The notes under the pieces are model-generated. The model was not told the DNA's origin. It ran no database searches and saw only the letters and a program-made list of their open reading frames with translations. This document shows, in pieces, positions 7,830 to 62,789 of a stretch of DNA of 64,000 bases (position 1 is its first letter; each line of letters opens with the position of its first letter). The stretch comes from Candidatus Kerfeldbacteria bacterium (GTDB lineage Bacteria > Patescibacteriota > Patescibacteriia > UBA10025 > JAHIVO01). The translations under genes and the position numbers were made by a program. The stretch is taken from positions 649,041 to 713,040 of the forward strand of contig CP181398.1 in NCBI GenBank assembly GCA_047946875.1, given 5' to 3'.

Positions 7830-7830
7830 A

Positions 7831-13136: not shown

Positions 13137-13206
13137 AATTAGTTCATTCAAACTGACGGTGATAATAAAGTCACTGCGGTAAACATCGAATGGACAAGGA
13201 GTTAAC

Positions 13207-13677: not shown

Positions 13678-13700
13678 CGAATAATCGCACAAAATAGAAT

Positions 13701-13739
13701 AACCCCGTTTGTATTTATACACTCGGGGTTAATTTTTTA
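13701..13739 (+). terminator. rho-independent terminator
   Basis: AACCCCG...CGGGGTT stem followed by T6. Confidence 0.65.
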
Positions 13740-13744
13740 TTCCA

Positions 13745-14477
13745 AAAAATTGAATAAAAAAAAGACCGTCCCCACCATGTTGCATCAGTATGCTACTAGC
13801 GGGAACGGTTAATCTAATATTCTATAATAATTTTTTGATCTAAACGAATCCAGTGGGAAACGGCATTTGAATGCCTCCGAGGTTTACCCTTTTTTGCTGG
13901 GCCGGCTGTATCTAATGTGTCCCCTACGTATACATTAACGCGGGGTGTGGAAAACAGGACTACGGATCACTAGGTGAATCCGTAAGTGGCCATATACGAC
14001 TTGCGTGTCATAGTAGCTTCCCTTTCGGGGGTCTAACGTATGGGTTTGTGGGCCATGCCGCTCTTTTTTTGGCGGCTGTGTTTCTGTCTTCTTTTTTCCG
14101 GCTGAGGCCAGATAGAGTCTGGCGGCCAGGTGCCGGATTTTTGTTTCAGTCTTCTTTTTGTCGACGAATTGTCGTCGCGCAATGGCCAGCGGCGCTAGCT
14201 TTTTCTTTTTTTTTGAACTACTGCTAGGGTCGCAGGACTACTCGGCGGCGACATACGACGGCCGGGTCGGTGAAAGTTTAATTAAAATGCGCTTTGCGCA
14301 GGTGGTTGCCGAAATTCGGCGATCCTCGGTTGAACATTTTTTTTACTCCTTTCTACCCTGGATGGTCATGTGTTAGGTTAATTCTTTCAATGAACGCGTA
14401 CTACACATATACATGCTCTACCGGTGCCAATTTAGGCGTATTACTCACGGTTATGGCATGTTATTGCGTAACCAATA
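13745..14477 (-). ncRNA. candidate large structured ncRNA (~700 nt), class unknown
   Basis: About 50% GC in a ~30% GC genome; no ORF longer than 74 aa; many GC stems; minus-strand promoter TTGACA-N17-TAGTAT at 14478-14506; minus-strand terminator (9-bp stem plus T10) at 13753-13809. Confidence 0.3.
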
Positions 14478-14527
14478 ATACTAGCGCATATTGCATAACT
14501 TGTCAAGGGGTAATATAAAGATATAAA

Positions 14528-14553
14528 AAAAGCATCTTTTATTCAAAGATGCT
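14528..14553. terminator. bidirectional hairpin terminator
   Basis: AGCATCTTT-TATTC-AAAGATGCT flanked by A-runs and T-runs. Confidence 0.5.
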
Positions 14554-14903
14554 TATCGTTTTAACAGTCGCTCTAGCTCAACAGACAAAGAATCATCGTA
14601 CTTGCTCACTTTTTCACAAGTAAAATTTTGTCCATTAATCCAACACTTCCAAACTATATTGTTTTCCCAAAATTTACGGTTCTGCTTCCAAATTAAGAAA
14701 AAAGATTTGGCTGTCGGACCCGATTTACAAAGAATACTAATCTTGCCTTTAGCAGTATTACCTGAGCTTTGAATAACTCTTCCATAGAAAGGCTCTCTAT
14801 GTCCATCTATGTAAATCTCTACTACATCCCACATTTTTGGGATATAATCCGGTCCATTTTCATGGAAAGTACGCATAATATCCTCCAATGTATAAAAGAT
14901 CAT
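14553..14903 (-). CDS. hypothetical protein
   Basis: 116-aa ORF. Confidence 0.45.
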   Translation of the reverse strand: MIFYTLEDIMRTFHENGPDYIPKMWDVVEIYIDGHREPFYGRVIQSSGNTAKGKISILCKSGPTAKSFFLIWKQNRKFWENNIVWKCWINGQNFTCEKVSKYDDSLSVELERLLKR

Positions 14904-14999
14904 TTTCGATTATAGCTTACATTCTTAAGTAAATATCGTCAATTACAGTTTTTGTAACAAAAAAGACCCTTTAATCTAGAGGGTCTTCAATTCATTAAT

Positions 15000-15329
15000 T
15001 TACATTTCTCCGCCTTCACCTTCAATAGCAGAGCGGAGTGACTCTACCATATCATCGACTCTAGACCTCTTGTCACCAGACATCGCTATATAGTTCTCCT
15101 GATCCATTGCCAAACTCAACCACTCACTTTCATCACTATCTTCTTTAATACCAATCTGCTGGTAAATAGCAATTAATTCCGTTGGATTTTTACCATTTAA
15201 ATTTTCCTTTAGAAATTGAGCCGTGGCAGTAGCTTTTTCCCACATGGCCCTGCCCTCAGGTGATTTCCCAGCTTCACTCATATATTTAAATATTAGTTTA
15301 TTATAATTTAATTTTAAACCATATATCAC
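15000..15329 (-). CDS. hypothetical protein
   Basis: 109-aa ORF; the true start may be an internal Met. Confidence 0.45.
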   Translation of the reverse strand: MIYGLKLNYNKLIFKYMSEAGKSPEGRAMWEKATATAQFLKENLNGKNPTELIAIYQQIGIKEDSDESEWLSLAMDQENYIAMSGDKRSRVDDMVESLRSAIEGEGGEM

Positions 15330-15360
15330 TTAATATCAAATCGCCCTTTTACGCTAGGGG

Positions 15361-15389
15361 TTGACAAATAACAATAAAGGTGATACTAT
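15361..15389 (+). promoter_or_regulatory. promoter TTGACA-N17-TACTAT
   Basis: Hexamers upstream of the 15446 operon. Confidence 0.55.
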
Positions 15390-15445
15390 GTTTAGTTAAC
15401 TATTTTTGAAAGAAACTTGAAATAATAATACAAACGGAGGTAACA

Positions 15446-15955
15446 ATGAAGTTACATCACACCATTTTGACCATAATTTTGGTCATCAGTTTAGCAACCT
15501 TCTTTGGTTGCAATGGGGAATCATCAAACATGTCAACTGAAGCTCAGTTGGAAGAAACTATTAGAAACCTTCCTACCGGGTATAACGACATGATGGTTCT
15601 TTATTCGGAAATTCTCAACCTAGAAGATGGTTTTATAAAACTATTGGACAGTTACGATGAATTCCGAGTAACTATGGACTCCATTCGTGCATGTACACCG
15701 GAAGAAGAGCTACTACCGGATTCGATCTATGTGCAGAATGGCAGGTTCAACGACGACATTTTCAGTGTGGAGAACCTTTGGAATAAGAAGGTATACCAGT
15801 ACAACGAAATGGGTGGAGTAATGCATCCTGACAGTTTGATGGCAGGCAATACCGCCATGAACATCGAACTACCGGCTGGTATCAACATCCAAGCCGAAGA
15901 GTCAAAGACTGATGAAGAAAAAGTTCAAAAAATCTTAGAATCATTGAATCAGTAA
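15446..15955 (+). CDS. putative lipoprotein
   Basis: 169 aa; signal peptide with lipobox FFGC. Confidence 0.55.
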   Translation: MKLHHTILTIILVISLATFFGCNGESSNMSTEAQLEETIRNLPTGYNDMMVLYSEILNLEDGFIKLLDSYDEFRVTMDSIRACTPEEELLPDSIYVQNGRFNDDIFSVENLWNKKVYQYNEMGGVMHPDSLMAGNTAMNIELPAGINIQAEESKTDEEKVQKILESLNQ

Positions 15956-15974
15956 CAAGAAGGGAGTTCAAAAA

Positions 15975-16451
15975 ATGAGACATGAAAAGTATTTCATCGA
16001 AAGTACTGGCGAAGTTAAACTCGCTAAAATCATTTTCCATGTATTCGGCCTTATTTGCCTGATCGTCTTGCTTAGTTTCGTGGGCAAAGTGGTCTTCTTT
16101 CCAGCGCAAGTAGCGCAGGAAATCGCTGAAGAGACTTTCGACGGTAGTCGGATGATCTATGTCTACGAAGACTTCTTCAACAAGTACGAAGCGGCCAAAG
16201 CAACAGCCATCAAGGTGAAAAATCACCAGAGGGCTCTGGATGACTTCAAATTCGGCCATCCGGACCCGGATAATTGGGATTATAATGATCGTCAAGAGTA
16301 TGATCGTTTATCCTCAATGATTCCAGCCGTGATGAATTTATTGGCCGACCAAGTCGGACAGTATAACGCCGACGCCGCGAAGATCAACCGCGCTTTTCTG
16401 AAAGGCGATAAATTGCCTGACAGTCTGGTCATTGAAGAACTCACGCAATAA
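15975..16451 (+). CDS. membrane-anchored hypothetical protein
   Basis: 158 aa with an N-terminal TM helix. Confidence 0.5.
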   Translation: MRHEKYFIESTGEVKLAKIIFHVFGLICLIVLLSFVGKVVFFPAQVAQEIAEETFDGSRMIYVYEDFFNKYEAAKATAIKVKNHQRALDDFKFGHPDPDNWDYNDRQEYDRLSSMIPAVMNLLADQVGQYNADAAKINRAFLKGDKLPDSLVIEELTQ

Positions 16452-16469
16452 CCCAAGGAAGGAAGAAAG

Positions 16470-17048
16470 ATGAAAACGAGAAAAATTCTCATTCTAACTT
16501 GTATGGCTTTGTTCGTCCTGATGGCGAATGGAGTCGTCCTGGCGGATAACGATTTTGAAGCGTCCTCCAAAGCTGTCAGTAGAATTCAGGCTCAGGACCA
16601 ATTGCAAACCGCTCAGAATTTCGAACGGTTATACAATGCGGTCCCGCCACCCGAAATGCAGGACTCCCAGGAACGACGCCAGCTGGTCAAACGGCTGAAT
16701 CGTTTCAATGTTTCTTCAAAGATCAGTTATATTTATCTGATCGACCGGGGAATCATCATGGCCTTCTTTACGGTCAAGGGAAAAGTCAGCTCAGTTAACT
16801 CCATGCTGACCTGCACAAAACAATTGGTTTACGATGGTTACGGTACCAGCTATGGCCGAGGTGGCGTTCACGCGGTTGCTAGTCCTGATCTCGACGGTAG
16901 CTATGGTACCAATGGTAATGGAGTATTCTTCTTCACCGATCTCGATACTTATATCGAATGGAACGGCAAGTACCTACTCTGTGATCAGTACATAAAGCTC
17001 AACCAACCGCCGGTCCTCGTTCTCGAAACTGAGGAAGGAGGCAAATAA
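16470..17048 (+). CDS. secreted hypothetical protein, tandem paralog A
   Basis: 192 aa, signal peptide; about 70% identical to the next gene. Confidence 0.6.
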   Translation: MKTRKILILTCMALFVLMANGVVLADNDFEASSKAVSRIQAQDQLQTAQNFERLYNAVPPPEMQDSQERRQLVKRLNRFNVSSKISYIYLIDRGIIMAFFTVKGKVSSVNSMLTCTKQLVYDGYGTSYGRGGVHAVASPDLDGSYGTNGNGVFFFTDLDTYIEWNGKYLLCDQYIKLNQPPVLVLETEEGGK

Positions 17049-17049
17049 G

Positions 17050-17631
17050 ATGAGATTGAACAAAAATCATATCATCTTCATCGCCATCGCTATGGCTATA
17101 CTCCTTCTGACTATCGGTTGTGGAAAGAATAAAGAATTTTCCAACTCATCCAAAGCCGTCAGTAACATTCAGGCCAAGGACCAGCTGAAAACCGCTGAAA
17201 ATTTCGAACGGTTATACAAAGCGGTCCCACCTCCGGAACTTCAGGATTCCCAAGAACGGCGTCAGCTGGTTAAACGGCTGAACCGATTCAATGTAGCCAA
17301 CAAGATCAGCTTTATCTACATCATTGACTTCGGGAAAATCATTGGATTTTTCACGGTCAAAGGTAAAGTCAGTTCAGTTAACTCTATGTTAACTTGTACT
17401 GAACAGCTGGTTGATGATGGATTTGGGACGGGTACTGGTGAAAATGGACGCGATAATGTCCATATTGTTCCCAGTCCTGATCTTGACGGTAGCTATGGTA
17501 CCAATGGTAAAGGAGTATTCTTCTTTACTGATCTCGATATCTATGTGGAATGGAATGGCACTTATATGCTTTCCGACCAGTACATCAAACTGGATCAACC
17601 ACCGGTCCTTATGCTCAAAGTGAAAGCCTAG
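17050..17631 (+). CDS. lipoprotein, tandem paralog B
   Basis: 193 aa; lipobox TIGC; shares the conserved KGKVSSVNSMLTCT motif with paralog A. Confidence 0.6.
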   Translation: MRLNKNHIIFIAIAMAILLLTIGCGKNKEFSNSSKAVSNIQAKDQLKTAENFERLYKAVPPPELQDSQERRQLVKRLNRFNVANKISFIYIIDFGKIIGFFTVKGKVSSVNSMLTCTEQLVDDGFGTGTGENGRDNVHIVPSPDLDGSYGTNGKGVFFFTDLDIYVEWNGTYMLSDQYIKLDQPPVLMLKVKA

Positions 17632-17670
17632 AGCAAAAGAGGCTAGTTAACATAACGTTCTTTATTATAA

Positions 17671-18215: not shown

Positions 18216-18656
18216 TTAAATTGTTGGATTAATATCTTTTCGATGTCTTCTTCTCTTTACTACTTTTATTCTAATTAATTCTTTCTCAATCTTAGCAGAT
18301 AATGCGGCGAATTCTTTGGCGTCTGTTCTCTTCTCAGTCAATAACTTCTCAGCCTTCTGTCTAGCTTCTTCTGCCTTTGCTTCATCAATATCGTCTGACT
18401 TCTCAGCTGAATCAGCCAAAACTACCACCTTGTCAGGTCGCACTTCTATGAATCCTCCGGACACAGCCAGATACTCCTCTTCTTTACCTTTCTTAATCTT
18501 TAATTCTCCTGGTTTCAGAATAGAAACCAATGGAATATGATTTGGCAATATACCAATTTCACCCTGCACAGTCGGCAAAACAACCTCATCTACCTGATCA
18601 GAATATACTACTTTTTCAGGAGTTATTATTTCAAAATTAAGTTTTTTTTCTGCCAT
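18216..18656 (-). CDS. atpC: F0F1 ATP synthase epsilon subunit
   Basis: 146 aa; beta-sandwich plus helical hairpin; operon position. Confidence 0.85.
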   Translation of the reverse strand: MAEKKLNFEIITPEKVVYSDQVDEVVLPTVQGEIGILPNHIPLVSILKPGELKIKKGKEEEYLAVSGGFIEVRPDKVVVLADSAEKSDDIDEAKAEEARQKAEKLLTEKRTDAKEFAALSAKIEKELIRIKVVKRRRHRKDINPTI

Positions 18657-18666
18657 ACAAAAATTA

Positions 18667-20064
<1,398 letters not shown>

Positions 20065-20173
20065 TTATTATTAATTTATTTATTGTTTAAAACTCTTGAC
20101 AAATTTATGTATTTATAATTAGATATAGTAATTGTTCAAATTGTACATTGATAAAATAAACTAGGAGGAATTC

Positions 20174-20653
20174 ATGAATACGGATGTTTTACAACCATTA
20201 CCAGATGAGTATAAAGATAAAACTAGTAGCGAAATAGCGGTTTTATTGTTTGACTCATCAAAAATTAATAATACTGAGTTAGCAAATATACTTGGTATCG
20301 GCAGGACAACTCTGTGGCGATATCGGAAGAAAAAATTCTCAAAACTGATTATGGCTAATGCTATCATTCAAGCTTTGGGTTATATTCCACCTAATCTACC
20401 TCAACGGAAAATGCCTGCTACGACTTCAGATGATCAACAGCTCTACTCTGGTACAATAGTATATAGCTATTTAAATGGTACTGTAACCTACATCAAATGG
20501 TTAGAGAAAAAATCAGAGACGCTCTGTAAGGTAAAATTAGACAAATATGATAGAGAAATAGTAATAATATTTCCTTATGATATTACTGATCGTGTCTTCC
20601 GTGAGTCTAAAATAATACTAGTCAATGAAATGGTTGGTAAAATCAAACTCTAA
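20174..20653 (+). CDS. HTH-domain protein (paralog 1)
   Basis: 159 aa; LANILGIGRTTLWRY helix-turn-helix. Confidence 0.5.
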   Translation: MNTDVLQPLPDEYKDKTSSEIAVLLFDSSKINNTELANILGIGRTTLWRYRKKKFSKLIMANAIIQALGYIPPNLPQRKMPATTSDDQQLYSGTIVYSYLNGTVTYIKWLEKKSETLCKVKLDKYDREIVIIFPYDITDRVFRESKIILVNEMVGKIKL

Positions 20654-20672
20654 AATAACGGAGGTAAGAGTG

Positions 20673-21164
20673 ATGAACGATCAAGGATTGAACAATTCAT
20701 TTCCTATTATCGATCTAAATCAAGACGATGCAACATTACTTGAAACAATTTATCAAGCATTCTTATTAACTGGTGAAAACGACGTTGTTCTATCACGTAG
20801 ACTAGGAATTTCTCGTAACACCCTCCGATCTATAAAAAATGGTAACCACGGAATTCTGTCAAAATCTCTATCTATCTTGCGTAGTCTTGGATATTGCCTC
20901 ATCCTCCCGATAACTGATTCAGCATTCGAATTTCGACAGTTACCTATTGTGGTAACCTCGGCTATTGAAAATCCCGATCCGGATTGTTTTGAAGAGGTTA
21001 CTAGATGTAAGCAATATCTGGTAGATGATGGATGGGAAATTGTTCTGATTAATCGCCGTCCAATAGATGATGACAGGTATCAGTTCACTTTACATGCTCG
21101 CCGGTTGGTCCCTGAAGATTTTAAAGAAAAATCATCAAATACCCAATCTGTGGCTGCAGTATGA
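20673..21164 (+). CDS. HTH-domain protein (paralog 2)
   Basis: Start moved to the ATG 8 nt after GGAGG; LSRRLGISRNTLRSI helix-turn-helix; shares the (A/S)LGY motif with paralog 1. Confidence 0.5.
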   Translation: MNDQGLNNSFPIIDLNQDDATLLETIYQAFLLTGENDVVLSRRLGISRNTLRSIKNGNHGILSKSLSILRSLGYCLILPITDSAFEFRQLPIVVTSAIENPDPDCFEEVTRCKQYLVDDGWEIVLINRRPIDDDRYQFTLHARRLVPEDFKEKSSNTQSVAAV

Positions 21165-21291
21165 CTCCTTTGTTTATTATAAAGCGCTTTTAAGATTATT
21201 ATCTTAGGCGCTTTTTTTATTTAATGTACTTTCCAATTACTGGATAAAATCTATATTCAATAATTAAATACAAATTTCAGCCAATAACTTA

Positions 21292-22212
21292 TTATTTGAC
21301 TGCTGCAGCCCCGGCACTAATTTCTGCTATCTCTGATGTAATTGCCTGTTGTCTAGCTTGGTTGAATGTTAGATTCAAATCATCAATCATATCTCCAGCT
21401 GCATCAGATGCATTACGCATGGCTACCATTCGTGAAGAATGTTCAGATGCATTTGATTCTAACAATGCTTGATATACTTGCAACTCAATCAAACGATGCA
21501 ACATCTGATCCAAAACTACATCAGGAGATGGTTCGAATGTATATTCCAAATCTGTAGTTTCAGCTTCTACATTATCCTTCTTATCTTTTATAACATGACC
21601 CAACTCATTATCTTCTTTTGAAATAGGTAATAATTTTCTAATATAAGCTTCTTGAGATACGGCAGATTTATAATCAGTATAAGCAATTACTACTCTTTCA
21701 TATTTTCCAGATAAATAATCTGTGATAACCATCTTTGCTATAGCGCTTATTTCCGTAACACTTTCTGCAGTTTCTGGTTTAGGAAAGTTAGCAATAATCT
21801 TATGATTATATTGATGCATAATATCTTTACCACGATCACCCATCAAAAATATGTCCGCTATCTCTTCAATATTTTTTTCTTTTTTCTTTTTATCTAAATA
21901 CCCTGCAACTTTTTCAACAATCTCACGATTAAATCCGCCACATAAACCACGGTTTGAATTAATCATTATTATGCCTATTTTTCCGTCTTTTGATTCTTTT
22001 CTTTCTAATAAAGGATGGTGAGAAGCATCTGTCTTGGCAGATAGATTCTTAACAATATCCCAAGCCGTATTTGCATAATGACGGGTTTCCAAAACAGACT
22101 TCACTGCTTTTCTCATTTTTGAAGCAGCAACCAACTCCATAGCTTTAGTAATTTTTTTAGTACTACTTATGGAGCGAAGACGTCTTTTTATTTCTTTAGT
22201 TGCTAGGGGCAT
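21292..22212 (-). CDS. atpG: F0F1 ATP synthase gamma subunit
   Basis: 306 aa; N-terminal KEIKRRLRSISSTKKITKAMELVAASKMRKA. Confidence 0.9.
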   Translation of the reverse strand: MPLATKEIKRRLRSISSTKKITKAMELVAASKMRKAVKSVLETRHYANTAWDIVKNLSAKTDASHHPLLERKESKDGKIGIIMINSNRGLCGGFNREIVEKVAGYLDKKKKEKNIEEIADIFLMGDRGKDIMHQYNHKIIANFPKPETAESVTEISAIAKMVITDYLSGKYERVVIAYTDYKSAVSQEAYIRKLLPISKEDNELGHVIKDKKDNVEAETTDLEYTFEPSPDVVLDQMLHRLIELQVYQALLESNASEHSSRMVAMRNASDAAGDMIDDLNLTFNQARQQAITSEIAEISAGAAAVK

Positions 22213-22262
22213 AATTTATTTCTTTCAGGCATAGCCTGATCCGGCTCTGCCGGAATCTTTAT

Positions 22263-23810
22263 TTAATTATTAACCTTTTTAGTCTCTTTCTCTTCTTCTT
22301 TTACAACAAAATTTGTTGTTTTTTTAAAGTCTTCTATTGTTTGTCTTAATTTCTTATCAATATCTTCAGTAATATCTCCGGCATCAGAAATTTCTTTCAG
22401 TAAATCTTTTGCTGACATATTTAGATATTTATCAAATTCAGTTTCAAATTCTTTGATTTTCTCTACTGGAATATCAGACAACAATTCATTAACCGCAGCA
22501 AATAATATTGCTACTTGATTTTCCATCGGTACTGGCGCAAATAAACCTTGTTTCAATATTTCAGTTAACCTTTTACCTAATTCTAATTGTCGTTGTGTAG
22601 CATCATCAAGATCAGAACCAAACTGTGCGAAAGCTGCTAATTCTCTAAACTGAGCTAAATCCAAACGTAATTTGCCGGCTACTTTTTTCATAGCTTTGGT
22701 TTGGGCAGCAGAACCAACACGAGACACTGACAAGCCAACACTAATCGCTGGTCTAATACCTTGATAAAATAAATCTGGCTCCAAAAATATTTGACCATCT
22801 GTAATAGAAATTACATTGGTAGGAATATAGGCAGAAATATCTCCTGCTTGAGTTTCGATAATTGGCAAGGCTGTTAATGATCCACCACCATAATCTTTAT
22901 TTAATTTAGCAGATCTTTCTAATAGTCTTGAATGTAAATAAAATACATCACCTGGATAAGCTTCACGGCCTGGAGGTCTCCTTAATAACAATGAAATCTG
23001 TCGATATGCCCAAGCATGCTTGGATAAATCATCATAAATAACTAGAGCATCTTTACCCTGCTCCATGAAATATTCTGCCATTGCACATCCAGAGTAAGGG
23101 GAAATATATGATAAACTTGCTGGATCAGAAGCACCAGCTACTACTACAATAGTATGTTCCATTGCTCCATGTTTTTCCAATTCAGTAACAATCTTAGCTA
23201 TCTTTGATTCCTTCTGACCAATAGCCACATAAACACAAGTTACACCTTTACCTTTTTGATTGATAATAGTATCTATAGTCAAAGCTGTTTTACCTGTCTG
23301 ACGATCACCAATAATCAACTCACGTTGGCCACGTCCAATAGGTATCATTGAATCAATAGCCTTAATACCAGTTTGTAGTGGCGTATCTACTGATTTTCTA
23401 GTAATAACACGAGGGGCAATTTTTTCTACTGGGTAATATTGGTCAGTATTAATATCACCTTTACCATCAATAGGCTCACCTAGTGGATTCACAACTCTAC
23501 CAACTAAAGCATCGCCAACAGGTACCTGTAAAATTTTACCAGTACTTTTAACAGTATCTCCTTCATTAATACCTTCATTACCACCAAGGATAATAGCACC
23601 AACAGAATCTTCTTCTAGGTTCAAGGCTACACCATATTTTCCGCCAGGAAATTCTATCATCTCCATAGCCAAAACATCAGACAGTCCAGAAATCATAGCG
23701 ATGCCATCACCTATTTCTTCGACTGTACCAACTTTTTCAGTTGAGACAGATGTTTTGAAATCAGTAATCTGTTTTTTTAGTTCTTCGATAACGAAATCTT
23801 TGCTTGACAT
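22263..23810 (-). CDS. atpA: F0F1 ATP synthase alpha subunit
   Basis: 515 aa; GDRQTGKT Walker A. Confidence 0.95.
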
Positions 23811-36900: not shown

Positions 36901-38130
36901 TTACTCAGCTGAAAATTTCTTATCCAACTCAGTAACTTGTGGATCTACTTGCAAAGATTTCTCATTATATCCTATCAAACTTAATCCATTGAGAGATCTA
37001 ACTCTTGATAATGCTACATACCCCATCCCATATTCAAAAGTCTTACTAAGATCTATTTCTGTAAGATCCAAACTCATACCCTGACTTTTATGCACAGTAA
37101 TAGCCCAAGCCAAACGTAATGGCACTTGTGCTATCTCAGCCAAGACATCATCTTGCTCATCTATTGTCCAAGAAACTGGTTTTACTTTGATTGTTTTACC
37201 TTCTACAGTTTTGACTATTGGATAATTATCTTCATCATCAAAATCAATCACCTCTCCCATCGTCCCATTTATATATTCTTCTTTAAAATTATTTTTTACA
37301 AACATTACTGCCGCACCTCTCTTCAATATCAAGTCCTCTGGAGCTAAACAATTTTTCTTTAATGTCTGTACCAAATTTTCTATCCCATTAGATTTCATTT
37401 GGTATATTTTTGGTTTTCTATTTATTTTTGCCAGCTCCATCGAGTTTAATGAATCGACATCAGTATTATGTGTATAAATTTTTATTGGTTTGATGCGACT
37501 CTTGAGCTTAGCGCCAACCCTACTTTGCAATAGAGTGAGGTCAGCTGGGGTACATGTCTGTGATCTAATATTTTTTAATAATGTAAGAAACTTTTTATCT
37601 TGATGACGATGTTGTTCAGTCAAATAGCAAATCTCAGGATCTAGTTCTGGCCAAGCATGTGAATTCACTACAAAACTTCTAAAGCCCATTCCTCTGACCG
37701 GTTGAAGCTGAAAAAAATCTCCACTCAAAATTACTTGCAATCCTCCAAATGGTCTTACGTCCTGCCTAAAATATTTACAAACCTTATTTATAAGATCAAA
37801 CTGGTTAGCATGTAACATTGATATCTCATCAATAATCAAAATGTCATTATTTTTTATATGCTGTCGCAAGTAATCTTTCTTCATCATTTTGGATATCTCA
37901 CCATCAGTCAAAGTAGTTTTCAGCTGAATCCCAGACCATGAATGTATTGTTTTCCCACCTATATGCGTAGAGGCAATCCCAGTAGAAGCAGTTACAGCGA
38001 CAGCTTTACCTTCACTCTTTGCCCATTTGATAAATTTATTTAACAAAAAAGTTTTACCAGAGCCTGCGGCGCCGGTAATGAATGCGTTCCCACCATCTTT
38101 TAGTGCTTCTAGAGCTTCTTTTTGTTTCAT
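36901..38130 (-). CDS. PIF1/RecD-family SF1B helicase
   Basis: 409 aa; GAAGSGKTFLL, DEISML, C-terminal LSRVRSLNGL. Confidence 0.8.
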   Translation of the reverse strand: MKQKEALEALKDGGNAFITGAAGSGKTFLLNKFIKWAKSEGKAVAVTASTGIASTHIGGKTIHSWSGIQLKTTLTDGEISKMMKKDYLRQHIKNNDILIIDEISMLHANQFDLINKVCKYFRQDVRPFGGLQVILSGDFFQLQPVRGMGFRSFVVNSHAWPELDPEICYLTEQHRHQDKKFLTLLKNIRSQTCTPADLTLLQSRVGAKLKSRIKPIKIYTHNTDVDSLNSMELAKINRKPKIYQMKSNGIENLVQTLKKNCLAPEDLILKRGAAVMFVKNNFKEEYINGTMGEVIDFDDEDNYPIVKTVEGKTIKVKPVSWTIDEQDDVLAEIAQVPLRLAWAITVHKSQGMSLDLTEIDLSKTFEYGMGYVALSRVRSLNGLSLIGYNEKSLQVDPQVTELDKKFSAE

Positions 38131-54544: not shown

Positions 54545-55108
54545 TTATGAAACGATATCAGAACTCTGCAGAACTGAACCAACAAACTCATTACTTGAGA
54601 TAGTTGAATATTCACTAAATCTCAAAAAAGAAGGCTGATCACTAGAAAGAAATTTACTGCTTGCATCCTCCATAAATCCAGCAGTTAATTCAAAATGTCC
54701 AACATTTTCTCTGTTATCGATCAATGATTCAGCTAACTCACTCTCAGTATCGAATACAGCTCCAATAATAACACTGGTTAATGGAATAGAATAATCCAAA
54801 TATGGTGCAGTCTCTGCATTTGAAATACATCGGATTATTTCTAAGTCAGCTGGAGTAAAGAGAAATCCCTCTTTGCGAAAACATTCTAAATAGATTGCTA
54901 TTTGAGCACATCTTGGAACTGATAAATCAATATTAAGATGGACCATATTCGTACTGCCGGTAATAATTTGACTATTAAGAAAATCGCATTGCTGTGAATC
55001 ATTACACATCAACAGTATCGGCATAGCTAATGAACTGTCATCAGTATCACAGTAACGAGAAATAAAAATTTGCGGAACTCCAAAATTCATAACTGCATGG
55101 TTCGACAT
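54545..55108 (-). CDS. hypothetical protein
   Basis: 187-aa ORF. Confidence 0.45.
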   Translation of the reverse strand: MSNHAVMNFGVPQIFISRYCDTDDSSLAMPILLMCNDSQQCDFLNSQIITGSTNMVHLNIDLSVPRCAQIAIYLECFRKEGFLFTPADLEIIRCISNAETAPYLDYSIPLTSVIIGAVFDTESELAESLIDNRENVGHFELTAGFMEDASSKFLSSDQPSFLRFSEYSTISSNEFVGSVLQSSDIVS

Positions 55109-55180
55109 ATGTCCTCCTTATTATTTTTTGAATGATCATTTAATTAAACAATCTTCTCATATTGAAATAATTAAGTCAAT

Positions 55181-55211
55181 AAAAAAACTGGCGGTGCAAA
55201 GCAACGCCAGT
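55181..55211 (-). terminator. rho-independent terminator
   Basis: ACTGGCG...CGCCAGT followed by T7 on the minus strand. Confidence 0.6.
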
Positions 55212-55236
55212 TTAAAGAACAAAATTAGATTTTCGA

Positions 55237-55950
55237 TTAGTTAACGGTACAGAGACCACTTGGAGGTTTTTTTACAACTTCCGTGATTTGTGGAATATCC
55301 GATACCACCTTTGGCTCTGGTGCGACATAATCAACACCCATAACCAAGCAAATCATCTCATTGTAATCTACTGGCCGAATCTCGGCCGCAGAAGCTATGT
55401 AATTCCACTGACCTTCAACCAAATGAAATCTACGATTATCTTCCAAGATAATAACCGCATTACTTTGGCGAAGCCATCTAGAATTATTAACTAGCGTAAT
55501 AAGTTTCACGCGTAACGACCAGTCATCAGTAAAGAGACAGACCATATTATATGGAGTGATCGGGTTCGGCAAACGATTAGCAAAAATACTTTGCCTAACC
55601 ATGTTTCTCACTTCATAAGTAACTGTTTTCTGATCCAGTGAATCAGCAGTTAATTTCTCCATACTCACAGAAACCACTTCAAGATAATGAGCACGAAGCG
55701 AATCATGATTCGGTGCGTCCTCCCAGATTGCCATACCGCTTGATGTAGCACCGACAACTACTTTATCAGCCGCACTTGAATTGCTAGCAAATATCATAAC
55801 AATAATTGCTAATACTGCGAATGCAATCATTCTTCCCTTACCATGTCCACCTGCTTCGTGTTTCTCATTGTCCTGATCAATCTGTTTGGACACTTTTTGA
55901 GTTCGGCATCTTTTTTCATCCACCGAACCAGATGTTAAATCGTAAGTCAT
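55237..55950 (-). CDS. membrane-anchored hypothetical protein (GC-rich)
   Basis: 237 aa; TM helix at about residue 40. Confidence 0.5.
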   Translation of the reverse strand: MTYDLTSGSVDEKRCRTQKVSKQIDQDNEKHEAGGHGKGRMIAFAVLAIIVMIFASNSSAADKVVVGATSSGMAIWEDAPNHDSLRAHYLEVVSVSMEKLTADSLDQKTVTYEVRNMVRQSIFANRLPNPITPYNMVCLFTDDWSLRVKLITLVNNSRWLRQSNAVIILEDNRRFHLVEGQWNYIASAAEIRPVDYNEMICLVMGVDYVAPEPKVVSDIPQITEVVKKPPSGLCTVN

Positions 55951-56171: not shown

Positions 56172-56200
56172 TTGACATTGTCCCTATTAAGAAATATAAT
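56172..56200 (+). promoter_or_regulatory. consensus promoter TTGACA-N17-TATAAT producing a leaderless mRNA
   Basis: The -10 hexamer ends 6 nt before the ATG at 56207; there is no ribosome-binding site. Confidence 0.6.
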
Positions 56201-56594: not shown

Positions 56595-59363
56595 TTATAT
56601 TTCTCTGGCTTGCCTAACACTTATCTTACCGCCGGATTCTAAGACCGCAACATCACGACGGCCTATTTTACCTTGCAATAAATAATTTGCCAATGCATTA
56701 TCGACTGTATCTTGAATAGCTCTACGTAATGGTCTTGCTCCAAATTGAGGATCATATCCCTTTTGTGCTAATTCTTCTTTTGCCTTATCAGTAGCTTCCA
56801 AACGTATACCTTTTCGAGCTAAACGTTTTTCGACTTTTTTTAACATCAAATCTACAATCATTAAAATATGTTGCAAGGTAAGAGGCGTAAAGACTACAAT
56901 ATTATCAAAACGATTTAAAAACTCAGGTCTAAAATATGGCTTAAGAGCTTCATTAATTAATTCTTCTTTAATTTGATCCATTTTAATTTTTTGATTAATT
57001 CTATCTTGAATTAATGAAGTACCGGCATTGGAAGTAGCAATAATAATTGTATTTGTAAAATCAATAGTACGTCCCAAAGTATCTGTCAATCTACCATCAT
57101 CCATTACTTGTAAAAATATATTCAAAATATCAGGATGTGCTTTTTCAATTTCGTCCAATAGCACTAATGAAAAAGGCTTAGCTCTAACTGCTTCAGTCAA
57201 AAATCCACCACGAGCAGAGCCGTCATACCCAGGAGGCGCACCTATCAATCTATTGATAGACGACTTCTCCTGATACTCAGACATATCCAATCTGATCATA
57301 TTGTCTTCCGATCCAAAATATACATCAGCAACTGTCTTGGCGAGTTCTGTCTTACCTACACCGGTTGGTCCAAGGAATAATAGATTAACAATTGGACGTT
57401 TAGCATCACGAAGCTCAGCTCTGGCACGTCTCAATGCAGTTGATACAGCCTTCACTGCCTCTTCTTGATTTACCATTCGTTTATGAATAAGCTCTTCAAG
57501 ATTCAAAAGCTTTTCAGTTTCTTTTTCGTTAATTTTTGTTACGGGGACATTTGTCTTTCCTGATATAACTTCTGCGACATCTTCACCAGTGACAATCGCA
57601 TTTTTTCCTTTTTTCCTTCTAGCATATACTGCTACCTCTCCTAATAAAGTAATAGCTTTTTCTGGAAAATATCGATCCTGAATATAACGACCAGACAATC
57701 TAACAGTCTTTTGAATAGAATCATAAGAAAAGAAAATTTGGTTTTTTGCTTCCAACGTTCCAGCCTTAGCTTCCAGCACTCGAATTGTCCCATTAATATC
57801 TAATTCTTCTATCGGTACTTTTTGGAATACAGAAGTTAGAGCAGTACTACTCTCAATATATCTAGTGTAATCCATCGGTGAAGTAGTCGCGATACTATAA
57901 AATAACCCATGTTGTAAAGCATTCGCCAAAATATCAGAGATGTCCAAATTTTCAGCACCTTGCGTAGAAACTCCTACCATATTCTGAATATTATCAATAA
58001 TTAATACTATATTTCCAGAACGTGTAATTTCATTAATTATTTGCATTAACAAGCCTTCTAATTCACCTTGCCGACCAGCTGCACTAACTAAAGACGGTAC
58101 AGATAGACTAACCATCCTCATATCTTGTAACATTTCTGGTACTTCTTCTGAAGCCATTAGCTCTGCAATACCCTCTATAATACTTGTCTTACCAACACCT
58201 GGATTACCAGAAAGAATAACACTTTTACCACCCTCTAAAATTCGTAGTGTTGTCTCTATCTCTCTATCTCTACCAATACAAGGTGACGTTACTCCTTGTC
58301 TAGCCAAACTGGTAATATCTCTACTAAATCTATCCAACAAAGGAGTTGCTTGAGATGTCATTGATTTATTCATTACCCCTTTTGATTTATAAGATGCTTT
58401 ATTTCTCCAACGACGCAACTTTTCAGCCAAACGTTGATGAATATTTATCCATTCTGCAACATTAATTATTTCATCTAACTCTATTTCTAAATCAAAAAAT
58501 ATTTCACTAGATAATTTATCAACTTTGACTAAAGCTGTAAGTAAATGTGGAATCTGTACACGTGACTGTCTTGATTGATGCGCCTCATTATAAGCGCTTA
58601 TTAATATTTTTCTAAAATCTGACGATAATATAATATCCTTTTTACCAACTCTTTTTGGTATTCTATTCAAACTCCTTGAAATTTTATCAATCATCAATTG
58701 ACCATCAATACCTAGACGACCTAGTATTGTTTGTGTTTCACTATAAGATAATAAAGTTGCTAACAAATGAATAGGATGAGCCTGTTGATGATCAAATTTT
58801 TTAGCTAATTCCCATGACTTATCTATAGCACGTCTTGCTTCCATAATATAAGTCGGCGAAACATCAATAATTTGTTTTTTGTTTAGTGCCATCACTTGAT
58901 CAAATAAGACCTCAGGTAATGTCTCAGTCAATATAGGATCGAATTTTTTAGCTATAACTTTTTTCTCTAAAATTGATTCTCTCTGAATTCGATAATAGGC
59001 ATACAAATCTGTAAGTAATGTTATAGCAAAAATACCCATCAAACCATTTTTTGTTTTAATAAGTTCAATAAATATCTCATCACCTTTGATAAATTCAATA
59101 TAGGTTACAGCTAAAGCAACTATTCCAATTATTCCAAAAAATATTAAAAATCCGTTTATTAAAGCTTTTACTGTTCTTTCAATTTGTTCCTCAAAAATAT
59201 TCAAAGTATCAACTTTGGATCCCCAAAAAATAAAATTACCATCAAGCCAACCATAAACACCTTTCTCACGGCAACATCCACAATTTTTATCAGCTTCAAG
59301 ACCTGTCCCCTGACAAATAGGGCAATCTATAATGACAAAATTTTTACCTGTCTCAGTCGGCAT
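56595..59363 (-). CDS. ClpA-like double-AAA+ unfoldase with N-terminal zinc ribbon and TM anchor
   Basis: 922 aa; CPICQGTG...CGCC; TM segment; two Clp_N repeats; GNPGVGKTS and GPTGVGKTE Walker A motifs; no M-domain. Confidence 0.8.
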   Translation of the reverse strand: MPTETGKNFVIIDCPICQGTGLEADKNCGCCREKGVYGWLDGNFIFWGSKVDTLNIFEEQIERTVKALINGFLIFFGIIGIVALAVTYIEFIKGDEIFIELIKTKNGLMGIFAITLLTDLYAYYRIQRESILEKKVIAKKFDPILTETLPEVLFDQVMALNKKQIIDVSPTYIMEARRAIDKSWELAKKFDHQQAHPIHLLATLLSYSETQTILGRLGIDGQLMIDKISRSLNRIPKRVGKKDIILSSDFRKILISAYNEAHQSRQSRVQIPHLLTALVKVDKLSSEIFFDLEIELDEIINVAEWINIHQRLAEKLRRWRNKASYKSKGVMNKSMTSQATPLLDRFSRDITSLARQGVTSPCIGRDREIETTLRILEGGKSVILSGNPGVGKTSIIEGIAELMASEEVPEMLQDMRMVSLSVPSLVSAAGRQGELEGLLMQIINEITRSGNIVLIIDNIQNMVGVSTQGAENLDISDILANALQHGLFYSIATTSPMDYTRYIESSTALTSVFQKVPIEELDINGTIRVLEAKAGTLEAKNQIFFSYDSIQKTVRLSGRYIQDRYFPEKAITLLGEVAVYARRKKGKNAIVTGEDVAEVISGKTNVPVTKINEKETEKLLNLEELIHKRMVNQEEAVKAVSTALRRARAELRDAKRPIVNLLFLGPTGVGKTELAKTVADVYFGSEDNMIRLDMSEYQEKSSINRLIGAPPGYDGSARGGFLTEAVRAKPFSLVLLDEIEKAHPDILNIFLQVMDDGRLTDTLGRTIDFTNTIIIATSNAGTSLIQDRINQKIKMDQIKEELINEALKPYFRPEFLNRFDNIVVFTPLTLQHILMIVDLMLKKVEKRLARKGIRLEATDKAKEELAQKGYDPQFGARPLRRAIQDTVDNALANYLLQGKIGRRDVAVLESGGKISVRQAREI

Positions 59364-59365
59364 AA

Positions 59366-59833
59366 TTAATTCTCAAAAAATATTAAAGGTATATCTGTAG
59401 TCTGATAAACAATATAATAAATAATTATTAATGGAAGTATTAACCAGCTAATAAACAATAAAAATAATATTATCAACCAAAGTATCGTAGCAATTAGTTT
59501 CCATACTAGAACTATCAACCTCATAAAGAAACTGATAATTCTACCTTCCCGTGTATAGTCCCCATACATTGGCTTAAATATATTTTTTAACCAGATAACC
59601 AAAGCAAGGCGACGATTGATATGAAAGGTCGCACTTTGAATACAATAGTTACCTACTATTTTTAATCCTTTTGTATACCACCAAATCGGAAAATAAATAA
59701 TATCCCAAATAATTTCTATCGCAATATATTTAAGTGTAGCTATGATAATATGATCAGACATAGTAAAATTGTCTCCTTTATATATATATTCTAACACATT
59801 TTTTTGATTTTGTAAAGGAAAAAAGAACCACAA
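59366..59833 (-). CDS. hypothetical membrane protein
   Basis: 155 aa; Trp-rich TM helices. Confidence 0.45.
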   Translation of the reverse strand: MWFFFPLQNQKNVLEYIYKGDNFTMSDHIIIATLKYIAIEIIWDIIYFPIWWYTKGLKIVGNYCIQSATFHINRRLALVIWLKNIFKPMYGDYTREGRIISFFMRLIVLVWKLIATILWLIILFLLFISWLILPLIIIYYIVYQTTDIPLIFFEN

Positions 59834-59870: not shown

Positions 59871-60344
59871 CTAGTTAAAAAAAAGTGAGAAAACTAATTC
59901 ATCTTTACCTGCATGAAAATGATTCTTTAAGATCGCCTCTTGATGCATACCCTTATTTTCAAAAAAGTTTTTTATCTGAATATTGTCTGTATGTATCATA
60001 GAAAAAACTTTGCGTAATTTTGAATTATGTTTTTTATAAAAATAATCAGCCTCTGCAACCATAACATCAAATAACATTTCTTTTACTTCTTCAGACTCAG
60101 ATATATCTTGTAAAACTGTTATTTTAGTTAATTCAGCCACTCCATGTTTTTCTGTACCTTGTGTTCGCCAACTTATTATACCAACTACCTTATCACCATT
60201 ATGAGCGATACGATAATGTTGATACATACATTCATACTCAAAAACGCTTACCGCTTCTTCTTTTGTAATATAACTGTACTTACTTTTTAGCAGTTCTGAA
60301 ACCGCCTGGCCATCTTTACAGTTGGCCTTACGTATTTTTATCAT
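59871..60344 (-). CDS. GNAT-like acetyltransferase
   Basis: 157 aa; weak GNAT pattern. Confidence 0.4.
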   Translation of the reverse strand: MIKIRKANCKDGQAVSELLKSKYSYITKEEAVSVFEYECMYQHYRIAHNGDKVVGIISWRTQGTEKHGVAELTKITVLQDISESEEVKEMLFDVMVAEADYFYKKHNSKLRKVFSMIHTDNIQIKNFFENKGMHQEAILKNHFHAGKDELVFSLFFN

Positions 60345-60373: not shown

Positions 60374-61135
60374 TTATTCAGTTGTATCTGTCGTAACAGG
60401 AATATCAGTATTAGAATTTAATTCTTCTTCAATAATTTCTTTAAAATCATCCAATGTCTTAGGACTTATCTTCTCCCCATTCAAAAAGAATGATGGAGTT
60501 GAATTTACTTTAGCTCCTATACCACTTGTATAGTCACCATCTACTTTATTTTTAACTGTGCTAGATGTTAAGTCAGTTGTAAATTTCTCTACATCCAATT
60601 CTAATTCTGTAGCATATGTAACAAACATTTCTTCAGGATTTGATTCATTTGACCAACTATTTTGTCCTTCGAATAATTTATCATGCATCTCCCAAAATTT
60701 ACCTTGAACTCCCGCAGCCTCTGATGCCTGAGCTGCTATCTGTGCATTACTATGTATACTTCTGAGTGGAAAATGTCTATATGAAAAATATATATCATCA
60801 CCATATTCATCCATTACTTGATTCATTATATTATAATATGTTGAACAAGCAGGACATTGAAAATCACTATATTCTATCAAAACTATTTGACTCTCTTCAT
60901 TACCCTTAGTTTGGTCTATTTCAGAAATATCATTTACTGTAGTTGTGCTAGTATTATCACCGTCTCCCTGACTTAACCAATATATACCGCCAATAACAAT
61001 TATGATTATTATAGCCCAAGTAGTATATCTAATAATCTTTTTTTTTGAATCATTTTTTTTTCTATTTTCAATCTTCCCTTGTCGTTTTAATTCTCGTCTT
61101 TGTTTTTTTGTTAAAACTTGATCTTGATTATCCAT
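60374..61135 (-). CDS. DsbA-like thiol:disulfide oxidoreductase, membrane-anchored
   Basis: 253 aa; CPAC active site in a thioredoxin fold; N-terminal TM helix. Confidence 0.75.
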   Translation of the reverse strand: MDNQDQVLTKKQRRELKRQGKIENRKKNDSKKKIIRYTTWAIIIIIVIGGIYWLSQGDGDNTSTTTVNDISEIDQTKGNEESQIVLIEYSDFQCPACSTYYNIMNQVMDEYGDDIYFSYRHFPLRSIHSNAQIAAQASEAAGVQGKFWEMHDKLFEGQNSWSNESNPEEMFVTYATELELDVEKFTTDLTSSTVKNKVDGDYTSGIGAKVNSTPSFFLNGEKISPKTLDDFKEIIEEELNSNTDIPVTTDTTE

Positions 61136-61196: not shown

Positions 61197-62789
61197 TTAA
61201 TAAATTTCGTCTTTTTTTTCTTTTTGATATGTTATCCAATCTTCTACTACTTCAATAAATATTTTGAATGGTGCTTCAATAATAAAATCAAAAATAAATA
61301 GGAAAACATTAATTTTAGGTACTTTGGCTGACAACCACTGTCCAACACGCAGAATCGGTAAAGTAAATAAATTTAACAATGCTGAGAAAAAACTATCTCG
61401 CTCATTAACAATTACTAATTCTTTAACTTCATTTCTTAGCTTAAGACCAAAGAAACTAACCGCTGTTAAGAAAAATATAAAGAAAATTATACTTACAATA
61501 TTAAAATTCAATAACCCTAAAGCCCAAACTAAAACACCAAATGATAATAAGAATGTTAAGGCATATAATAAATTAAATACTACTTCTACTACCTTACTAC
61601 GATTAAATACCTTTTTCTTACGATATAAAAATCCTGGATGAGGCTCAGAATAAACAATTCTCATTAATAAATTAGTTATTGTTTGGGTATTTTTTTCTGA
61701 AGGTAATTTTATTGAAGAAGCAATGAATAACATAAGTAGTGGATGAAAAATGATATTAACTAATAAAGGTGTATAAAACGTTAAACCTAATATAAATAAC
61801 TCATAAGGCAGCTCCAAAGCTAAAGCAAGTAACATCTTTGTTATAAAAATATATATTATAGTTCTAATATAACTACGTTTTAATTTTAGTTTAGCTTTTT
61901 GATAACGAAGATTACAATGACGAACAATTTCTTGCTCAAATTGTTTTGGGTGATTGACCAACCCAGTAAAATTTTCTTTATACTCGTCTATAATGTCTTT
62001 CAATATTATAAATATAACTGAGAATTGTCTAACAAATCTAAATAACCGATCATAAAAAGGATGGTTAATCTGGTATTCAATTTTATCTTTAATAGTAGAA
62101 AACTCATTATAAAAACGTTCAATCGCATCTGCATCACCAGATAGCCAGCCGGGCACCAAAAAATCTAACAAATGAAATCTAATTATCCCAAAATCTGATT
62201 TTATTAAAACACGATGTATAGCTATATAAACTTGTAAATCTCTTTCAATCGGATCAACAATATCCTCAGCCAAATCTACATCTTGCCTGATAATTTTATA
62301 CATATATTCAACTAAAGCATCTTCTCTGGTCGGCGGAACTAAATGATGCTCAATCTCAGTTGCTAAGACTGAAAGAATCCAATTTGCATCCTTACGTCTC
62401 TCTTTAGTCAAAAGATTGGGAGCAACACGTCTCAATAAATTCAAATGCTTCTCAATAATATTTTCCACCTCACCAATAACTCTCTCAGGAACTATGTTAT
62501 TTGGTAGATATTTTGCTCGTATCAACTCCGTAATTAATAAATTACCAAAATTTGATTTACGATCTTCAGTATAGAATCTTCTTTTTAACATTCGTTCAAT
62601 CGCATTCTTACGCAATAAATGCTCATCTTTATAATCGATAGCATTCCTAATTCTTTCATAAACAGAAGCGGCTCTACTTATCGTCATTTGAATCTTTATT
62701 TTTGATTCATCACTATCGTATTGATTCTGAGTTGATACTTGTTGAAAAGTATCTATAAATTTAATTGTTGGTTGTGAGATGTTGCTCAT
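61197..62789 (-). CDS. hypothetical membrane protein
   Basis: 530 aa; C-terminal half polytopic. Confidence 0.5.
   Translation of the reverse strand: MSNISQPTIKFIDTFQQVSTQNQYDSDESKIKIQMTISRAASVYERIRNAIDYKDEHLLRKNAIERMLKRRFYTEDRKSNFGNLLITELIRAKYLPNNIVPERVIGEVENIIEKHLNLLRRVAPNLLTKERRKDANWILSVLATEIEHHLVPPTREDALVEYMYKIIRQDVDLAEDIVDPIERDLQVYIAIHRVLIKSDFGIIRFHLLDFLVPGWLSGDADAIERFYNEFSTIKDKIEYQINHPFYDRLFRFVRQFSVIFIILKDIIDEYKENFTGLVNHPKQFEQEIVRHCNLRYQKAKLKLKRSYIRTIIYIFITKMLLALALELPYELFILGLTFYTPLLVNIIFHPLLMLFIASSIKLPSEKNTQTITNLLMRIVYSEPHPGFLYRKKKVFNRSKVVEVVFNLLYALTFLLSFGVLVWALGLLNFNIVSIIFFIFFLTAVSFFGLKLRNEVKELVIVNERDSFFSALLNLFTLPILRVGQWLSAKVPKINVFLFIFDFIIEAPFKIFIEVVEDWITYQKEKKDEIY

Follow-up and report, generated by a model that had tools for sequence, protein, structure and literature searches.

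How would a Clp-type ATPase act if it were built into the membrane and carried no site for ClpP? This question is raised by a gene of Candidatus Kerfeldbacteria bacterium (contig CP181398.1) that occupies positions 56595..59363 (-) of the 64,000-nucleotide stretch of DNA analysed here, to which we refer as the window. The gene is a complete open reading frame (ORF) of 922 codons plus a stop, and its product, identical to protein record P0003 ('AAA family ATPase [Candidatus Kerfeldbacteria bacterium]'), appears to be a membrane-anchored class I Hsp100 in which a zinc ribbon with CxxCxGxG and CxxC knuckles, a membrane segment, a Clp_N-like domain and two AAA+ modules, D1 and D2, follow one another from the N to the C terminus. 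A previous sequence-only reading had described a ClpA-like, double-ring protein with one membrane anchor of about 25 residues and no obvious ClpP-docking tripeptide, and had suggested an unfoldase or disaggregase that may work without ClpP. The domain architecture, the state of the motifs, their conservation throughout a family and the pairing of the gene with a second, small gene, a feature that lies beyond that account, are direct observations. From them we infer, with somewhat more confidence than doubt, that the protein is a remodelling or extraction machine integral to the membrane, driven by D2 and independent of ClpP, and that its small partner works together with it.

Domain layout and descent of the ATPase

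The 922-residue protein matched the Pfam families AAA_2 (E 2e-64), ClpB_D2-small (5e-26), AAA (3e-20) and AAA_lid_9 (1e-10), and its match to Clp_N was weak (21.4 bits, the cut-off being 20.7; E 2.9e-4). The resulting order of Clp_N, D1 with AAA_lid_9, AAA_2 D2 and ClpB_D2-small is that of the class I Hsp100/Clp proteins. The second property of this class, two catalytically competent rings with an aromatic pore loop in each, is missing from D1 in all members that were examined, and D2 is competent. The Clp_N-like N-domain (residues ~175-320; 58404..58841 (-)) aligns with residues 10-130 of the ClpC N-domain and is 34% identical to the N-domain of E. coli ClpB over 80 residues (E 1.7e-6). D2 is 53% identical to its counterpart in E. 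coli ClpB, 52% to that in ClpC and 41% to that in ClpA, and the corresponding values for D1 are 37%, 37% and 29%.

Motifs were aligned to E. coli ClpA and ClpB and a cyanobacterial ClpC. As the sequence-only reading had stated, the M-domain is missing: members of the family have no residues in either the insertion of more than 100 columns that is found in ClpB or the shorter one of ClpC, and ClpA matches the protein in a single stretch (residues 175-900) where ClpB and ClpC each match it in two. Because of the domain identities and the ClpB-like N-domain, the protein is best placed, by sequence, in the ClpB/ClpC lineage with the M-domain lost; the likeness to ClpA that had been proposed thus appears to hold for the layout and not for descent. 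The protein missed the cut-offs of the ClpB equivalog TIGR03346 (650 bits against 1232), of the ClpA equivalog TIGR02639 (561 against 993) and of NF008263 (401 against 1350), and of the NCBIfam model for ClpV (TssH; 518 against 885). Assignment to anti-phage defence was also considered and rejected, since the PADLOC models matched the ATPase in part and through generic AAA entries, and the partner not at all.

A profile built from the first 200 residues and searched against 1.84 billion representatives detected a family of at least 459 clusters (50% identity) at E<=1e-3, of which 257 remained at E<=1e-10. Complete members have ~885-965 residues, and the protein studied here, as the founding sequence, shows both features by which the family is defined, the N-terminal profile and an adjacent partner gene. 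Conservation across so large a family argues that the architecture is not a product of chance. Named members come almost entirely from Patescibacteria; the ATPase occurs in Kerfeld-, Jackson- and Parcubacteria, and the partner in Komeilibacteria as well. The exceptions are labelled 'uncultured Gammaproteobacteria' or 'Xanthomonadaceae' (P0046; L009, L011, L015-L017). We judged these labels to be unreliable because the genes are 45-70% identical to Patescibacteria proteins and lie in the same synteny; probably they are mislabelled or carry a default taxonomy in third-party assemblies. Database names of family members are 'ClpC', 'ATP-dependent Clp protease ATP-binding subunit' and 'AAA family ATPase', labels that imply a ClpP-dependent protease role to which the sequence gives no support.

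D1 is a predicted pseudo-ATPase and D2 the predicted motor

The D1 module (residues ~341-590; 57594..58343 (-)) is predicted to bind nucleotide and not to hydrolyse it. Its Walker A motif, GNPGVGK392T, is intact, and the lysine is retained in 66 of 68 members. The Walker B motif, by contrast with the canonical DE, reads D457-N458, and the dipeptide DE was found in none of the 110 members in which the position could be located. The arginine-finger pair is lost as well, S511-V512 standing in its place ('ERRF' to 'TSVF'), and in the pore loop R431 replaces the tyrosine of ClpA and ClpB (KYR to GRQ). The mean identity of family members to the Kerfeldbacteria protein is 61% in D1 and 71% in D2; a value of 61% suggests that D1 is maintained and is not decaying. 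In every member that was checked, the motif states point to a pseudo-ATPase that may still bind nucleotide, and the conservation of D1 to purifying selection. The description of the protein as double-ring does not hold in a functional sense, because D1 lacks all the elements for hydrolysis and for gripping a substrate.

All catalytic elements are intact in D2 and D2-small (residues 591-922; 56598..57593 (-)). They comprise Walker A K671, Walker B D737-E738, a TSN sensor-1, arginine finger R818 and sensor-2 G-A-R877. Of 125 family members, 122 have an intact Walker A motif in D2 and 118 an intact Walker B. The pore loop of the Kerfeldbacteria protein is G-Y713-D-G, and in its clade the loop ('GAPPGY713DG') has the ancestral length.

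Docking of ClpP is not predicted

Binding of ClpP by ClpA requires an IGL/F tripeptide, located in a helix-loop-helix of the second nucleotide-binding domain; this tripeptide is missing from ClpB and Hsp104 (PMC5540906). The helix-loop-helix at the docking-loop site of ClpA and ClpC corresponds here to residues 779-815, NAGTSLIQDRINQKIKMDQIKEELINEALKPYFRPEF (56919..57029 (-)), which contain no IG(F/L) and are about as long as the ClpB region. Residues 782-811, between the sensor-1 sequence 'SNAG' and 'RPEF', are devoid of glycine, and a seven-residue gap lies opposite the 'FAGFGG' of S. aureus ClpC. The sequence-only reading was right that the tripeptide is missing, but it had taken TSLIQ (residues 782-786) for the equivalent of the IGL loop; TSLIQ sits just past sensor-1, and the IGL of ClpA falls on K792-I793-K794. 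In the family, a hydrophobic-Gly-hydrophobic tripeptide (IGI or MGL) was seen in two of the 97 members with this region located, in each case at a non-conserved position. Since the family as a whole lacks the docking tripeptide, ClpP docking is not predicted and the protein would be ClpP-independent, as had been suggested.

One could envision that the protein is nevertheless a protease-coupled unfoldase that docks ClpP, a ClpP-like protein or another peptidase by a non-canonical surface. A possible candidate is encoded at one distant locus, L027, where a PF00574 protein of 247 residues with a hydrophobic N terminus (2433-3176 (-), between rpmH and rnpA) lies ~2 kb from the partner and Clp-like genes, on the opposite strand, and would apparently be membrane-anchored. 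We rejected this 'CLP_protease' gene as evidence of ClpP, given that it is a divergent homolog scoring 74 bits, with its own hydrophobic N terminus, and is not canonical. Apart from it, no ClpP homolog was found in the window or in 332 kb of related loci; nor were ClpP signatures detected in six frames of the window, which represents ~5% of the genome. With the docking tripeptide absent throughout the family, we consider coupling to a protease to be highly improbable.

A zinc-ribbon module and a putative membrane hairpin precede the ATPase

The first 175 residues distinguish the protein from the Clp ATPases to which it is related. The zinc-ribbon module (residues ~9-46; 59226..59339 (-)) has two knuckles, C14-P-I-C17-Q-G-T-G and C28-G-C-C31-R-E-K-G. 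Cysteines are found at positions 14, 17, 28, 30 and 31, and in an alignment of 36 members, a subset of the 68 full-length relatives that were aligned, C14, C17, C28 and C31 are at least 90% conserved and C30 is not conserved, in agreement with the zinc ribbon proposed earlier. Knuckle 1, CPICQGTG, is an exact DnaJ-type CxxCxGxG and knuckle 2 is of the form CxxCxxxG. The AlphaFold2 (AF2) model gives short beta-strands in the module, with a predicted local distance difference test score (pLDDT) of ~90. The module of the Kerfeldbacteria protein itself had no Pfam match at E<=1, whereas at the family level PF00684 (DnaJ_CXXCXGXG) matched 21 and Anti-TRAP (PF15777) matched 14 of the 36 N termini, all weakly (best E 2.5e-4). 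Anti-TRAP was also the top Foldseek match (E 0.28) and the best relevant sequence match in the PDB (phmmer, E 0.07), both of them weak. Taken as a family, therefore, the predicted zinc module appears to be of the DnaJ Cys-rich/Anti-TRAP type, on the strength of weak matches. Matches of the N terminus to designer pentatricopeptide repeat proteins were set aside as repeat-summing artefacts.

The zinc module is followed by a long helix (residues 53-93; 59085..59207 (-)), recognised by hydropathy and in the AF2 model, in which a conserved amphipathic juxtamembrane part, LNIFEEQIERTVK, runs into a first transmembrane segment (TM1; core ~67-90). Kyte-Doolittle means over 19 residues reach 2.6 in this core, so the tether that the sequence-only reading had recognised stands, supported by hydropathy, the model and conservation. 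The anchor does not, however, seem to be single, since a second helix, TM2 (residues ~107-125, GLMGIFAITLLTDLYAYYR; 58989..59045 (-)), comes next and leads into a K/R-rich stretch. In the AF2 model of the N-terminal module (mean pLDDT 85.6) the two helices span residues 53-93 and 107-131. The alignments show a common order of two cysteine knuckles, a Trp-rich stretch, the amphipathic helix, TM1, a loop of 13-26 residues and TM2, which ends in a conserved 'DLYAYYR' (D119, L120, Y121, Y124 and R125 are invariant within the close clade) and is followed by a basic stretch, a variable linker and the Clp_N domain. Averaged over the 36 members, the best 18-residue Kyte-Doolittle window is 2.62 for TM1 and 1.48 for TM2, and the mean number of K and R residues is 4.3 ahead of TM1, 1.5 in the loop and 5.4 past TM2.

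This positive-inside pattern, the hydropathy, the modelled helices and the consideration that the ATPase must be cytoplasmic together suggest that the anchor is a two-helix hairpin with both termini inside, which would leave the zinc ribbon and the ATPase alike in the cytoplasm. Of 125 full-length members, 16 have no CxxC, and the Cys-less members in the alignment retain the hairpin; we therefore regard the hairpin as the core of the N-terminal module. A membrane AAA protease of the FtsH type was considered on account of the transmembrane helices and was rejected, since the protein lacks a peptidase domain and has AAA modules of the Hsp100 type.

The ATPase gene is paired with a gene for a small membrane protein

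A gene (59366..59761 (-)) for a predicted integral membrane protein of 131 residues, the C-terminal ~50 of which are hydrophobic, lies directly upstream and ends in a stop codon 2 bp ahead of the Clp-like ATG. We placed its start at the ATG at 59761; the TTG at 59833 given in the ORF list over-extends the gene, since homologs begin at the ATG. The protein carries the motifs FPIWWYTKGL and PMYGDYxxxGRxISFFMR, and FPxWWYxxG, PM..., S..MR and W...P are invariant among its homologs. We found 147 of these, in Patescibacteria only and all labelled 'hypothetical'. Searches for this family in Pfam, NCBIfam and PADLOC gave no match, and the AF2 model, which is all-helical with a pLDDT of 89, had no match in the PDB.

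Of 18 distinct, independently sampled loci to which the Clp-like protein led, 17 had the partner gene directly upstream. The genome scan started from the 14 closest sequences, and the loci that it yielded are biased toward one clade. The spacing between the two genes, in 16 loci, was -4 to +12 bp. At the most divergent Clp-like member (38% identity) the partner was present as an uncalled ORF that was detected with a hidden Markov model of the partner, and a Jacksonbacteria locus is the only one of the 18 that has none. When loci were reached from the opposite direction, via distant partner homologs (35-46% identity), all three had the Clp-like gene directly downstream and different surrounding genes. 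Co-occurrence from both search directions amid differing neighbours is strong evidence that the partner and the Clp-like ATPase form a functional pair, and it suggests that the two proteins may interact physically.

These features bear on another explanation, namely that the protein acts by itself as a disaggregase or holdase on cytosolic proteins and is merely resident at the membrane, with the zinc ribbon and N-domain binding unfolded clients and taking the place of the ClpB-DnaK system in genomes that have been reduced. Such a role would agree with descent from ClpB/ClpC in the absence of a ClpP loop, with the loss of the M-domain that coupling to DnaK needs, and with a zinc module of the DnaJ Cys-rich/Anti-TRAP type. 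In characterised disaggregases, however, the two rings and the two pore loops are all in use; here D1 is dead. The scores of 509 and 520 bits against the NCBIfam models for the disaggregases ClpG and ClpK are far under the cut-off of 1900 that applies to each. Moreover, this explanation gives no account of the partner and the hairpin, both of which are retained even where the zinc ribbon has been lost. We think it quite unlikely for these reasons.

A proposed mechanism and the case for a switch

In the extraction machine that we favour, the N-terminal hairpin would anchor each subunit in the cytoplasmic membrane, with the zinc ribbon ahead of it and the Clp_N domain and both AAA+ modules after it on the cytoplasmic side. 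The subunits would assemble into a hexamer in which D1, binding nucleotide without hydrolysing it or gripping the substrate, would serve as an assembly or scaffold ring and D2 would be the sole motor. With its tether at the N terminus, the ring would have its entry face (the N-domain and D1 side) turned toward the membrane, as in FtsH and Msp1. The energy of ATP hydrolysis would then be used to pull or remodel proteins that are embedded in the membrane or associated with it. The partner would serve as an adaptor, a co-anchor or a receptor for the substrate, and the product would be freed into the cytoplasm and not into ClpP. We infer both the hexamer and the extraction activity from the features described above.

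Several observations weigh against this mechanism. TM2 of the Kerfeldbacteria protein is moderately hydrophobic, with a Kyte-Doolittle mean, calculated by hand, of ~1.0, under the 1.4 threshold used for listing. In 58 of 107 members an aromatic residue is lacking from the D2 pore loop, which is then usually four to six residues shorter, and even the clade of the Kerfeldbacteria protein replaces the hydrophobic residue that follows the tyrosine (GYDG, GYSG, GYRG). A complete gene without D2 exists (P0186; 2894-4717 of locus L022, and also in L023) and is followed by a gene for a WecA-like glycosyltransferase. The neighbourhoods that contain envelope genes are heterogeneous, and a fusion of the ATPase to such a glycosyltransferase was found on one contig. 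Given the state of the D2 pore loops, the function conserved across the family may be something other than canonical threading. The unfoldase or disaggregase activity proposed by the sequence-only reading thus remains plausible for the clade that has kept the D2 pore tyrosine, and it is insecure for the wider family, most of which has deleted the loop.

P0186 belongs to a group of ~600-residue proteins (P0186, P0171, P0173, P0178, P0190 and P0193) that have the zinc ribbon, the hairpin, Clp_N and a degenerate D1 and that end at the D1-D2 linker, without D2; P0186 is the one that was checked on its contig. Judged by their motifs, these proteins would be relatives entirely dead as ATPases. We considered whether the ~600-residue class arose from split genes and rejected this, P0132 being a truncation at a contig end and P0186 a complete D2-less gene.

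Because the pore aromatic of D2 is lost in most members and a branch lacks D2 altogether, a non-threading, switch-like function is seriously in play. In this alternative, the ATP cycle of D2 would alter the conformation or assembly of a membrane complex that comprises the partner and perhaps a WecA-like glycosyltransferase, for which the ATPase would act as a switch or scaffold. Pore aromatics have been lost from D1 in all members, as they have from D2 in the 58 of 107 just mentioned, while the catalytic motifs of D2 are intact in nearly all; the branch without D2 still has its membrane module and N-domain along with the dead D1; and adjacency or fusion to a Glycos_transf_4 (GT4) gene recurs in divergent branches. 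A WecA-like GT4 gene follows the Clp-like gene at L025 (8151-9239) and L028 (7962-9128) and follows the D2-less form at L022 and L023 (4900-5922 in L022), and P0149, of 1231 residues and from a single contig, is a Clp-like/GT4 fusion. The recurrent GT4 genes are WecA/TagO-like and score under the WecA and MraY cut-offs. This recurrence may reflect a functional link to envelope glycopolymer synthesis. On the other hand, the PPGY loop of ancestral length, with its tyrosine, in the clade of the Kerfeldbacteria protein is hard to explain without a pore function, all characterised Hsp100 proteins thread their substrate, and the window holds no GT4 gene. A switch therefore seems to us unlikely, and extraction driven by D2 is still the mechanism that we prefer.

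Genes surrounding the pair

Downstream of the Clp-like gene, a gene for a pilin of the type IV secretion system (T4SS) type (PF18895; 56207-56581 (+)) is convergent with it, with 13 bp between the two stop codons, and is found at this position in 13 of the 15 close-clade loci for which downstream sequence was available. The ATPase could, on this ground, assist a pilus or secretion apparatus as an accessory component that acts on the adjacent pilin, comparable to ClpV in the type VI secretion system or HSP101 in PTEX. The pilin gene is, however, on the opposite strand and is absent beside the distant members L007, L008 and L025-L028, whereas the partner persists there. The adjacency looks like local synteny within one clade, and we regard a pilus-specific role as very unlikely. 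The pilin gene is preceded by a perfect TTGACA-17-TATAAT at 56172-56200 (+), which ends 6 bp before the ATG, and its transcript could be leaderless or have a very short leader. A scan for promoters and terminators gave a signal no better than chance.

Farther from the close clade, locus L027 contains yidC, the partner and the Clp-like gene in this order (4281-8085), with gaps of 3 and 16 bp, so that the pair is apparently in an operon with a membrane insertase. Together with the GT4 genes, this neighbourhood points loosely to membrane or envelope biogenesis. It is tempting to go further and to suppose that Patescibacteria possess, built on the Hsp100 scaffold, a dedicated protease-free dislocase of membrane proteins or a remodeller of envelope assembly for which the partner selects the clients, WecA-like GT4 enzymes or pilins being candidates, and which may operate in a non-threading mode in much of the family. 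Such a machine would be a bacterial counterpart of Msp1 or Pex1/Pex6-Pex15, in which the pseudo-ATPase D1 ring and the hairpin would hold one active ring beneath the membrane. We offer this extension tentatively and with considerable doubt.

Between the partner gene and a 530-residue polytopic membrane protein are genes for a weakly RimI-like acetyltransferase (59871-60344) and a DsbA-like thioredoxin with an N-terminal transmembrane segment (60374-61135). The 530-residue ORF is one of three without a family match in 54545-55950 (-) and 61197-62789 (-), the others having 187 residues and 237 residues with a transmembrane segment. The window is AT-rich (GC ~0.33), and searches of it for tRNA genes and Rfam families gave no matches. 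Its most GC-rich part (0.39-0.43 against ~0.33 elsewhere) is at ~13200-17650 (+), where five ORFs of 156-193 residues without Pfam matches run opposite to most genes; this block could be a foreign island. Also encoded are an AAA_21 (AbiEii-like) ATPase (5487-6629 (-)), a 1004-residue, AddA-like UvrD-helicase/PD-(D/E)XK nuclease fusion (9745-12759 (-)) and a PIF1-like helicase (36901-38130 (-)). Ordinary housekeeping genes are present as well: those for subunits of F-type ATP synthase (18216-23810), the methionyl- and glycyl-tRNA synthetases MetRS and GlyRS, the tRNA-guanine transglycosylase TGT and an M16 peptidase.

Comparison with known systems

A full-text literature search returned no description of an integral-membrane class I Hsp100, a bacterial Hsp100 with a dead D1 or the partner family, in keeping with the view of the sequence-only reading that the combination is unusual. 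To our knowledge, and in that search, Hsp100/Clp proteins have been described as soluble machines only. If our interpretation is correct, an integral-membrane Hsp100 that is paired with an obligate membrane partner, and whose D1 is a natural 'Walker-B-trap', would extend the range of this scaffold, and if much of the family proves to be non-threading, this mode of action would be new for Hsp100 proteins. The clades that retain and those that delete the D2 pore loop form a natural experiment on the need for threading. The family is widespread among the Patescibacteria, a very large radiation, for the most part uncultured, whose genomes are minimal and in which nearly every retained gene is likely to matter.

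By sequence the closest relatives are ClpB and ClpC, with which the protein has in common the order of N-domain, D1, D2 and D2-small. Like ClpB, it has no ClpP-docking loop. Unlike both, it has no M-domain and hence no surface for coupling to DnaK or MecA, and it adds the 175-residue zinc-ribbon and two-helix membrane module, the partner gene and the losses in D1. ClpA has the same layout, in which two AAA+ modules are joined directly without an M-domain, but is soluble and has an active D1 and the IGL loop that is lacking here. A Cys4 zinc module at the N terminus of a Clp ATPase has precedent in ClpE and ClpX; these proteins retain the ClpP loop, however, whereas the zinc module described here is separated from the ATPase by the predicted transmembrane hairpin.

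With respect to the anchor, the nearest parallels are Msp1/ATAD1 and FtsH, in which an N-terminal transmembrane segment sets the entry face against the membrane and which extract membrane proteins, as has been described for the N-terminally anchored Msp1 (PMC7018516, PMC12793716). Both differ from the present protein in having a single AAA module of another AAA+ clade without Clp_N or D2-small, and FtsH has a fused M41 protease. With respect to the division of labour between the rings, the parallel is Pex1/Pex6, in which D1 retains the Walker A lysine but has lost Walker B, the arginine finger and the aromatic pore loops, and D2 is the motor; this complex works at the membrane with a small membrane-anchored partner, Pex15/PEX26, and without an attached protease (PMC9265785). 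The functional logic would be the same, as a matter of analogy and not of homology: Pex1/Pex6 is a peripherally recruited heterohexamer of the classical AAA clade, whereas the present protein is an Hsp100 predicted to be integral to the membrane. Should the proposed mechanism hold, the Patescibacteria would possess a bacterial analogue of the eukaryotic membrane extractases.

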